Source of the DNA: Escherichia coli
GTDB lineage: Bacteria > Pseudomonadota > Gammaproteobacteria > Enterobacterales > Enterobacteriaceae
Strand: one strand, 5' to 3'
DNA length: 64,000 bases
Assembly (NCBI RefSeq): GCF_003334385.1
Contig: NZ_QOWN01000002.1
In this document: positions 51,682 to 53,571 of the stretch, piece after piece
How positions within the stretch are numbered: position 1 is the first letter of the stretch
Layout: each line of letters begins with the position of its first letter
Notes under the pieces: model-generated
What the model saw: only the letters and a program-made list of their open reading frames with translations
Told to the model about the DNA's origin: nothing
The model's database searches: none
Translations under genes and position numbers: made by a program

Positions 51682-53571
51682 TTACGCATCACCACCGAAA
51701 CGACGACGACCGGTAGAATCATCACGACGCGGAGCGCGGCCTTCACGACGTTCGCCGCTAAAACGACGACCATCACCACGGCCACCTTCACGGCGTTCAC
51801 CGCTGAAGTTACGACCGCCTTCACGACGTTCGCCACCGAAACCACGACCACCGCCACGACGCTCACCGCCAGTATGCGGCTGTGCATCGCCCAGTAACTG
51901 CATGTTCATCGGCTTGTTGAGAATGCGAGTGCGCGTAAAGTGTTGCAGCACTTCACCCGGCATACCTTTCGGCAGTTCGATGGTGGAGTGAGAAGCAAAC
52001 AGCTTGATGTTACCAATGTAACGGCTGCTGATGTCGCCTTCGTTAGCAATCGCACCAACGATATGACGAACTTCAACACCATCATCGCGGCCCACTTCAA
52101 TGCGGTACAGCTGCATATCGCCAACATCACGACGTTCACGACGCGGACGATCTTCACGGTCACCACGCGGGCCACGGTCGTTACGATCGCGCGGACCACG
52201 GTCATCACGGTCACGGAATTCACGTTTCGGACGCATCGGCGCATCTGGCGGTACGATCAGAGTACGTTCACCCTGTGCCATTTTCAGCAGTGCCGCAGCC
52301 AGAGTTTCGAGATCCAGCTCTTCACCTTCAGCAGTCGGCTGAATTTTGCTCAGCAGTGCGCGGTATTGATCCAGATCGCTGCTTTCCAGCTGCTGCTGTA
52401 CTTTAGCGGCGAATTTTTCCAGACGGCGTTTGCCTAGCAGTTCTGCGTTCGGCAGTTCTACTTCCGGAATAGTCAGCTTCATAGTACGTTCAATGTTGCG
52501 CAGCAGACGACGCTCGCGGTTCTCAACGAACAGCAGCGCGCGGCCAGCACGACCCGCACGACCGGTACGACCGATACGGTGAACGTAAGACTCAGAATCC
52601 ATCGGGATATCGTAGTTAACTACCAGGCTGATACGCTCAACGTCCAGGCCACGGGCTGCAACGTCGGTCGCAATCAGGATGTCCAGACGACCATCTTTCA
52701 GGCGTTCCAGTGTCTGTTCACGCAGCGCCTGGTTCATGTCACCGTTCAGCGCGGCGCTGTTGTAGCCGTTACGCTCAAGAGCTTCAGCCACTTCCAGAGT
52801 CGCGTTTTTGGTACGAACGAAGATAATCGCCGCATCAAAATCTTCCGCTTCCAGGAAACGTACCAGTGCTTCGTTTTTGCGCATACCCCAGACAGTCCAG
52901 TAGCTCTGGCTGATGTCAGGACGGGTAGTCACGCTGGACTGAATGCGCACTTCCTGCGGCTCTTTCATAAAGCGGCGGGTAATGCGACGAATCGCTTCCG
53001 GCATGGTTGCAGAGAACAGAGCGGTCTGATGACCTTCCGGGATCTGCGCCATAATGGTTTCAACGTCTTCGATGAAGCCCATGCGCAGCATTTCGTCAGC
53101 TTCATCCAGAACCAGACCGCTCAGTTTAGAGAGGTCCAGAGTGCCACGTTTCAGGTGGTCCAGCAGACGGCCCGGAGTACCGACAACGATCTGCGGCCCC
53201 TGACGCAGGGCGCGTAATTGCACGTCATAACGCTGGCCGCCGTACAGAGCAACCACATTTACGCCGCGCATGTGTTTAGAGAAATCCGTCATTGCTTCAG
53301 CAACCTGTACCGCCAGTTCGCGGGTCGGTGCCAGCACCAGAATCTGTGGTGCTTTCAGCTCAGGATCAAGATTCTGCAACAGAGGTAAAGAGAATGCTGC
53401 AGTTTTTCCGCTCCCCGTCTGGGCCATACCCAGAACGTCGCGGCCATTCAGCAGATGTGGAATACACTCTGCCTGAATTGGAGATGGTTTTTCGTAACCC
53501 AGATCGTTAAGGGCTTCAAGGATAGGAGCCTTCAGGCCCAGATCTGCAAAAGTGGTTTCGAATTCAGCCAT
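51682..53571 (-). CDS. deaD: DEAD-box ATP-dependent RNA helicase DeaD (CsdA), 629 aa
   Basis: Q-motif, Walker [13 protein letters not shown] box (…VLDEADEM…), [10 protein letters not shown] motif, Arg/Gly-rich C-terminal tail; start trimmed 22 codons. Confidence 0.95.

Follow-up and report, generated by a model that had tools for sequence, protein, structure and literature searches.

The window analysed in this work, a 64,000-nucleotide stretch of an Escherichia coli contig (NZ_QOWN01000002.1), harbors on its minus strand the deaD (csdA) gene, whose coding sequence spans positions 51682-53571 (ATG at 53571, stop codon at 51682-51684) and specifies a protein of 629 amino acids. The name deaD had been given to this gene from the letters alone, and it is borne out by the NCBIfam equivalog PRK11634, which the protein matches with 1397.5 bits against a curated cut-off of 989; residues 1-629 align with profile positions 1-628, i.e., from end to end, and the score obtained with the RhlE profile of NCBIfam lies below the cut-off of that profile. 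The Pfam architecture agrees with this assignment, the order of the domains (DEAD 30-196, Helicase_C 232-340, DeaD_dimer 374-443, DbpA 489-558, and DeaD_C 568-629) being the one known for DeaD/CsdA, that is, the helicase core, Helicase_C, a dimerisation domain, a DbpA-type RNA-binding domain, and a disordered tail. The RNA-binding domain (amino acids 489-558, positions 51898-52107, minus strand; PF03880, E 3e-20) is folded and lies directly upstream of the tail. Concerning the beginning of the gene, the program-made list of open reading frames (ORFs) extends deaD to a TTG at position 53637, thus yielding 651 amino acids; the start giving 629 amino acids is supported by the fact that the NCBIfam match covers residues 1-629.

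The gene is embedded in the chromosomal context nlpI, yrbN, deaD, mtr, yhbW: the ORFs of mtr, yhbW, and nlpI flank deaD in the window, and the RefSeq annotation of the homologous locus agrees with this context. RefSeq also annotates as deaD the places that BLAST matched with the 3' region of the gene. YrbN, a protein of 26 amino acids, is annotated by RefSeq at the homologous locus; in the window, its gene would occupy approximately positions 53564-53644 of the minus strand, overlapping the deaD start by 8 nt. The deaD allele of the window is the K-12 one, being 100% identical (BLAST) to those of XL1-Blue, DH10B, and BW25113. In one strain, the deaD 3' end appears to be present also on a plasmid, and that genome has two matching places (queries 51600-52000 and 51660-51930).

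Downstream of the stop codon, a hairpin followed by a T-run (51604-51639, minus strand) looks like the intrinsic terminator of deaD; its 9-bp stem includes six GC pairs and is followed by TTTTTTTCTGT. The hairpin (51615-51639) is symmetric and is called on both strands, a proper T-run being present only on the minus one. The natural single-nucleotide polymorphisms (SNPs) of this element cluster in the loop (51626-51628), none of the seven alleles sampled having a changed stem. A search of the region 50000-55000 against Rfam retrieved no RNA family.

The last 65 residues of DeaD (amino acids 565-629, positions 51685-51879, minus strand) form a tail rich in Arg, Gly, and Glu, which includes 19 Arg, 20 Gly, and 11 Asp plus Glu residues, lacks Lys, and bears a net charge of +8. 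The original prediction had placed an Arg/Gly-rich low-complexity tail at positions 51682-51910; the tail does lie there, but about ten codons of that range reach into the folded RNA-binding domain. Amino acids 568-629 match the whole PF12343 (DeaD_C) model (positions 1-62 of 62; E 9.2e-12, 45.6 bits), which Pfam itself names the DeaD helicase C-terminal disordered region; the tail of the window belongs to this family as found in E. coli DeaD/CsdA, with the same order of domains and no difference.

Different lines of evidence indicate that this region is not folded, as the original prediction had proposed to verify. Using as input an alignment of 30 sequences covering the RNA-binding domain and the tail, AlphaFold2 assigned to residues 567-629 a pLDDT lower than 50 (37-46 per block of ten residues), with no secondary structure element recognized by DSSP, the RNA-binding domain being modelled with confidence (pLDDT 72-92). 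In the charge-hydropathy plot, the tail falls on the disordered side (mean hydropathy 0.276, net charge per residue 0.123, above the boundary), together with an Arg- and Asp-rich linker (residues 444-481), whereas the core, the dimerisation domain, and the RNA-binding domain fall on the folded one. Lastly, the PDB entries 5GJU, 5GI4, and 5B88, which correspond to fragments of DeaD identical to the query, cover only residues 6-210, 218-445, and 483-564 (the latter, 5B88, spanning the RNA-binding domain), and none of these chains includes tail residues. The DeaD tail is thus a predicted disordered, positively charged polyampholyte.

The tail was also supposed to be encoded by imperfect repeats, and periodicity, whose absence from a self-alignment would have spoken against the whole idea, is indeed detectable. 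The motif GERR occurs four times, at residues 569, 580, 591, and 606, within four units of the type (G/S)GERR(E/G)GGR having a period of 11 amino acids, i.e., 33 nt. Tandem Repeats Finder (TRF) reports positions 51775-51870 as a repeat with period 33, 2.9 copies, 71% matches, and a score of 108. On the basis of this output and of the spacing of GERR, all units being on the minus strand, unit 1 corresponds to amino acids 568-578 (51838-51870), unit 2 to amino acids 579-589 (51805-51837), and unit 3 to amino acids 590-604 (51760-51804), the latter consisting of an 11-residue unit plus an insert of four residues; a degenerate unit 4 together with the conserved end covers amino acids 605-625 (51697-51759) and is followed by GGDA (51685-51696).

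The autocorrelation of the amino acid sequence at lag 11 is 0.328 versus 0.168 +/- 0.045 in shuffled sequences (z 3.55, p 0.0008); once corrected for the choice of the best lag, p becomes 0.06, with a corrected range of 0.06-0.18. At the nucleotide level, lag 33 gave z 2.4 and p 0.013 against codon shuffles, and the recurrence of identical 4-, 5-, and 7-mers in the tail gave p 0.012, 0.010, and 0.006, respectively; overall, p in the shuffle tests is around 0.001-0.01. The tail is therefore a tandem protein repeat whose periodicity goes beyond composition. This periodicity is real but modest, in that about four degenerate units are present and not a clean tandem array. Indeed, the units share pairwise only 17-24 of their 33 nt (52-73%), and the same codon is used at only about half of the residues that are identical between units, which suggests that the duplications of the units are old rather than recent. 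The tail would have originated via ancient tandem duplications of an 11-residue unit beginning with G or S, which later diverged.

It had also been suggested that the repeats could drive length polymorphism, to be looked for by comparing the tail across strains. Alleles were searched for in two rank-stratified samples of 5,426 complete E. coli genomes (30 rows with a 401-nt query and 60 rows with a 271-nt query), and each indel allele was then counted over the 5,426 genomes with a junction-specific BLAST query. This revealed proteins ranging from 585 to 639 amino acids and four indel alleles, carried by at least 183 of the 5,426 genomes (at least 3.4%), a sampling that indels of 3-9 nt may escape. 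The commonest one, found in 158 genomes (2.9%), including strain 042, is an insertion of 12 nt which maps to unit 2, after position ~51817, and duplicates REGG (633 amino acids). A deletion of 78 nt (51740-51817, 26 amino acids), which joins unit 2 and unit 4 at GERREG and leaves 603 amino acids, is carried by 21 genomes, five of which are identical over the 80-nt junction query and 16 of which differ by one mismatch. Two genomes, counted with a 181-nt query, have an insertion of 30 nt at 51849-51873, where the 15-mer CACCGCCACGACGCT precedes part of a second copy; the insertion adds two copies of the 15-mer, from ~1.7 to ~3.7, and generates GGERR three times (639 amino acids). In two other genomes, 132 nt (51723-51854, 44 amino acids) are lost between 8-nt direct repeats, CACGACGC, giving a protein of 585 amino acids.

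All four indels are in frame and located at direct repeats derived from the repeat units, and no frameshifting tail allele was seen among the complete genomes sampled. The proteins of 585, 603, 629, 633, and 639 amino acids carry 1, 2, 4, 4, and 6 GERR units, respectively, with net charges from +1 to +10. Four of the genomes with the 603-residue protein are laboratory-derived isolates of EC0026B (NZ_OX460316.1), and the remaining 17 come from humans, a dog, and a cat, which implies that it represents a natural lineage allele rather than a laboratory mutation. The strains without 26 or 44 of the 65 tail residues are viable clinical isolates; hence, the repeats of the tail must be dispensable for growth in at least some conditions. 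As for the mechanism, the residual DNA repeats act as microhomologies at which in-frame indels are now and then generated by replication slippage or unequal recombination, and this accounts both for the rare length alleles of E. coli and for the much larger differences between genera. This is in agreement with the polymorphism that had been anticipated, rare as it is.

These alleles raise the question of whether the repeat might be a contingency locus, switching or tuning the length of DeaD at high frequency. Such a locus might leave behind four independent indel alleles located at repeat microhomologies, including one that more than doubles the copies of a 15-nt unit. However, the 33-nt units are long and their mutual identity is limited to the 52-73% reported above, the tail contains neither a homopolymer nor a short perfect microsatellite, frameshifting alleles are missing from the complete genomes sampled, the indel alleles total only 3.4% of the genomes (96.6% of the 5,426 having none of the four), and the commonest allele is the same 81-nt sequence (at least 99% identity) in 155 of its 158 carriers. 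Judging from this identity, the 12-nt insertion looks like one event passed on by descent and not like a recurrent switching. The variation in tail length is slow and in frame and does not look like that of a simple-sequence, phase-variable contingency locus, an explanation that we consider very improbable.

The sequence of the tail is under purifying selection, the SNPs observed in seven divergent E. coli alleles being 13 synonymous and one nonsynonymous; through the sole replacement, G579S, unit 2 acquires the SGERRE form found in units 3 and 4. We also compared orthologues retrieved with the C-terminal 215 residues, the proteins returned being mostly fragments: their tails range from 45 to 90 amino acids with 0-5 GERR units, and their alignment across the genera of Enterobacterales revealed that the terminal motifs PRRDD and RRRFG(G)DA and the R/G/E composition are kept. 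Between P0005 and P0006, both Klebsiella-like clusters, the difference amounts to exactly one 11-residue unit. It might be argued that such a tail is just a neutral, low-complexity filler kept by mutational inertia and devoid of any role in RNA binding or condensation. Such an idea would fit the variable length and number of units in the orthologues, the viability of the E. coli lineages that have lost 26 (21 genomes) or 44 amino acids (two genomes), and the catalytic activity of a tail-less construct, as far as this is summarised in PMC11850223. Nevertheless, the ratio of 13 synonymous to one nonsynonymous SNP, the large majority of genomes (96.6% of 5,426) without any of the four identified indel alleles, the fact that every indel found is in frame, the conservation across genera of the composition and of the PRRDD...RRRFG(G)DA end, and the possibility to recognize the region as a Pfam family all argue against it, so that we regard neutrality as improbable.

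The repetitive DNA of the tail also gives rise to two long alternative-frame ORFs, one on each strand, which had been pointed out as spurious and which are present at exactly the positions indicated: an antisense ORF of 110 amino acids, rich in Pro, Arg, and Ser (51659-51991, plus strand), and a Val-rich ORF of 71 amino acids in the +1 frame of the same strand as deaD (51672-51887, minus strand). The antisense frame can be closed only where deaD encodes Tyr, His, or Gln, residues that are missing from the tail past H566; in the +1 frame, a stop codon would require a T at the second codon position, which occurs only in four Phe codons, whose TTC/TTT triplets give no stop. Thus, both ORFs stay open since the amino acid composition of the tail (R/G/E/F codons) admits no stop in those frames. 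No NCBIfam family matches either of them, and in the +1 frame the natural SNPs of the seven alleles are one synonymous and 13 nonsynonymous. This shows that the long alternative-frame ORFs are mechanical by-products of the codon content of deaD and not genes.

The antisense ORF deserves a separate comment, since it might in principle be a real overlapping gene for a Pro/Arg/Ser-rich protein: it is open in all the seven alleles sampled, and also in its frame the natural SNPs are 13 synonymous and one nonsynonymous. However, the third codon positions of the two frames coincide, so that this pattern is shared with deaD and does not discriminate; it mimics purifying selection because the wobble positions are the same. 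Moreover, its openness is forced by the lack of Tyr, His, and Gln after H566, it begins within the deaD 3' region beside the terminator and has no family match, and its start, a TTG at 51659 which is the only one upstream of the repeat, is lost in four of the seven alleles (51659 T>C, 51660 T>C). On the basis of the start-codon loss and of the forced openness, we rejected the antisense ORF as a gene, whose existence appears extremely unlikely. This case also represents a caution, in that an apparent purifying selection on an antisense ORF can be the echo of shared wobble positions.

A related observation concerns databases, where a number of DeaD C-termini switch mid-tail to a Val-rich frame (P0007, P0022, P0027, P0060, P0063, P0031, P0047, P0095, P0097, and P0101). 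The E. coli-like entries among them end with ...VVMRNHR, which is the end of the +1-frame ORF of the window, and those from other species follow their own corresponding frame; they are mostly singletons from read-archive assemblies. These entries are probably indel errors extended by gene callers, the frame being stop-free. The stop-free +1 frame would account for many database DeaD entries with a frameshifted, Val-rich C-terminus.

A remaining question concerns the function of the tail. According to the part of PMC11850223 that summarises Xu et al. 2017, DeaD is a stable dimer whose main RNA anchor is the DbpA-type domain, and a construct without the C-terminal tail keeps, and even raises, its ATPase and unwinding activities. 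The highly basic C-terminal domain has been proposed both as the site of ATP-independent strand annealing (PMC3590231) and as a secondary, non-specific RNA-binding site (PMC1616957). In addition, foci of DeaD in E. coli and its phase separation are mentioned in PMC7414142, in the lines citing Hondele et al. 2019, and the phase separation of purified DeaD depends on salt, its condensates in vivo recovering in FRAP (PMC12758526). In this literature, where Hondele et al. 2019 and Xu et al. 2017 are known to us via the papers citing them, we found no test of the 65-residue tail alone for RNA binding or condensation.

The candidate role in RNA binding or condensate formation put forward by the original prediction fits these data on foci, phase separation, and the basic domain, the share of the tail itself being what we infer. 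The tail most likely works as a sequence-nonspecific electrostatic RNA tether and, at the same time, as a multivalent "sticker" region; as such, it may supplement the folded DbpA-type RNA-binding domain, aid strand annealing, and contribute to the RNA-dependent condensates (foci) of DeaD, and it would not be required for the chemistry of ATP hydrolysis or unwinding. The tail itself would be the source of RNA tethering and of condensate valency. Previous work has already described deaD and the arrangement of its domains, the disordered tail (a named Pfam family), and the condensates of DeaD. Taken as a whole, an explanation in which a disordered, degenerate-repeat DeaD tail serves as RNA tether and sticker, undergoes rare slippage events producing length alleles, and leaves long ORFs as by-products appears to us very probable.

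A close bacterial comparison is with RhlE1 and RhlE2 of P. aeruginosa, whose C-terminal disordered regions have been shown to enhance RNA binding, to affect unwinding, and to make the proteins phase-separate into cytoplasmic clusters (PMC11260450). RhlE and DeaD share a basic disordered C-terminal extension on a DEAD-box core, and the sequences of the RhlE tails evolve fast (PMC11260450). They differ in that RhlE belongs to another helicase subfamily and has neither a dimerisation nor a DbpA-type domain before the tail. The GERREGGR repeat of the DeaD tail is not shared by the RhlE tails, and the roles of the latter are experimental, those of the DeaD tail being putative.

Arg/Gly-rich, disordered RGG/RG regions associated with RNA binding and condensates are also attached to the DEAD-box cores of LAF-1, Ded1, and DDX4-type proteins. 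The likeness with DeaD lies in the Arg/Gly-rich disordered region joined to a DEAD-box core; unlike the eukaryotic RGG boxes, the DeaD tail has Glu interleaved and is a polyampholyte with a charged fraction of 0.45. An RGG/RG box, in the definition attributed to Thandapani et al. 2013, reportedly has two or more RGG, or three or more RG, with 0-4 residues in between (Tri-RGG, Di-RGG, or Tri-RG). The K-12 tail contains one RGG, three RG, and one Di-RG (RGGGRG), and it satisfies none of the Tri-RGG, Di-RGG, and Tri-RG patterns; we rejected it as a canonical RGG/RG box for this reason, and the analogy with the eukaryotic RGG domains is loose because the tail has only one RGG and one Di-RG. The Tri-RGG pattern is reached only by the rare allele of 639 amino acids. 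We know of no report of arginine methylation of the DeaD tail.

For mitochondrial helicases with an unstructured basic tail, the same mechanism has been proposed, i.e., the non-specific tethering of the core to large RNAs. Those helicases are monomeric and have no sequence relation to the DeaD tail. In DeaD, unlike in them, the main anchor is already provided by a folded RNA-binding domain, as summarised in PMC11850223.

We can further ask whether the tail-length alleles act as a lineage-specific tuning dial of the saturation concentration of the condensates or of the strength of RNA tethering, and hence of cold growth or stress tolerance (persistence). This is an unlikely reading in our opinion; if true, it would mean that natural strains of a bacterium differ in the valency of a disordered region. 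The catalogue of alleles, which spans from 1 to 6 GERR units, provides a ready series for testing the role of tail valency in DeaD condensation and cold adaptation.

The tail is not the only stretch of DeaD with these features. The Arg/Asp-rich linker located between the dimerisation and the RNA-binding domains (amino acids 444-481, positions 52129-52242, minus strand) is a second disordered, low-complexity region and contains the imperfect repeat DRGPRDRN/DRGPRGDR, with TRF reporting positions 52227-52250 with a period of 9. Also this linker yields long alternative-frame ORFs (51906-52244, minus strand, and 52100-52342, plus strand), and one orthologue (P0004) has an extra copy of DRGPRDRN in it.
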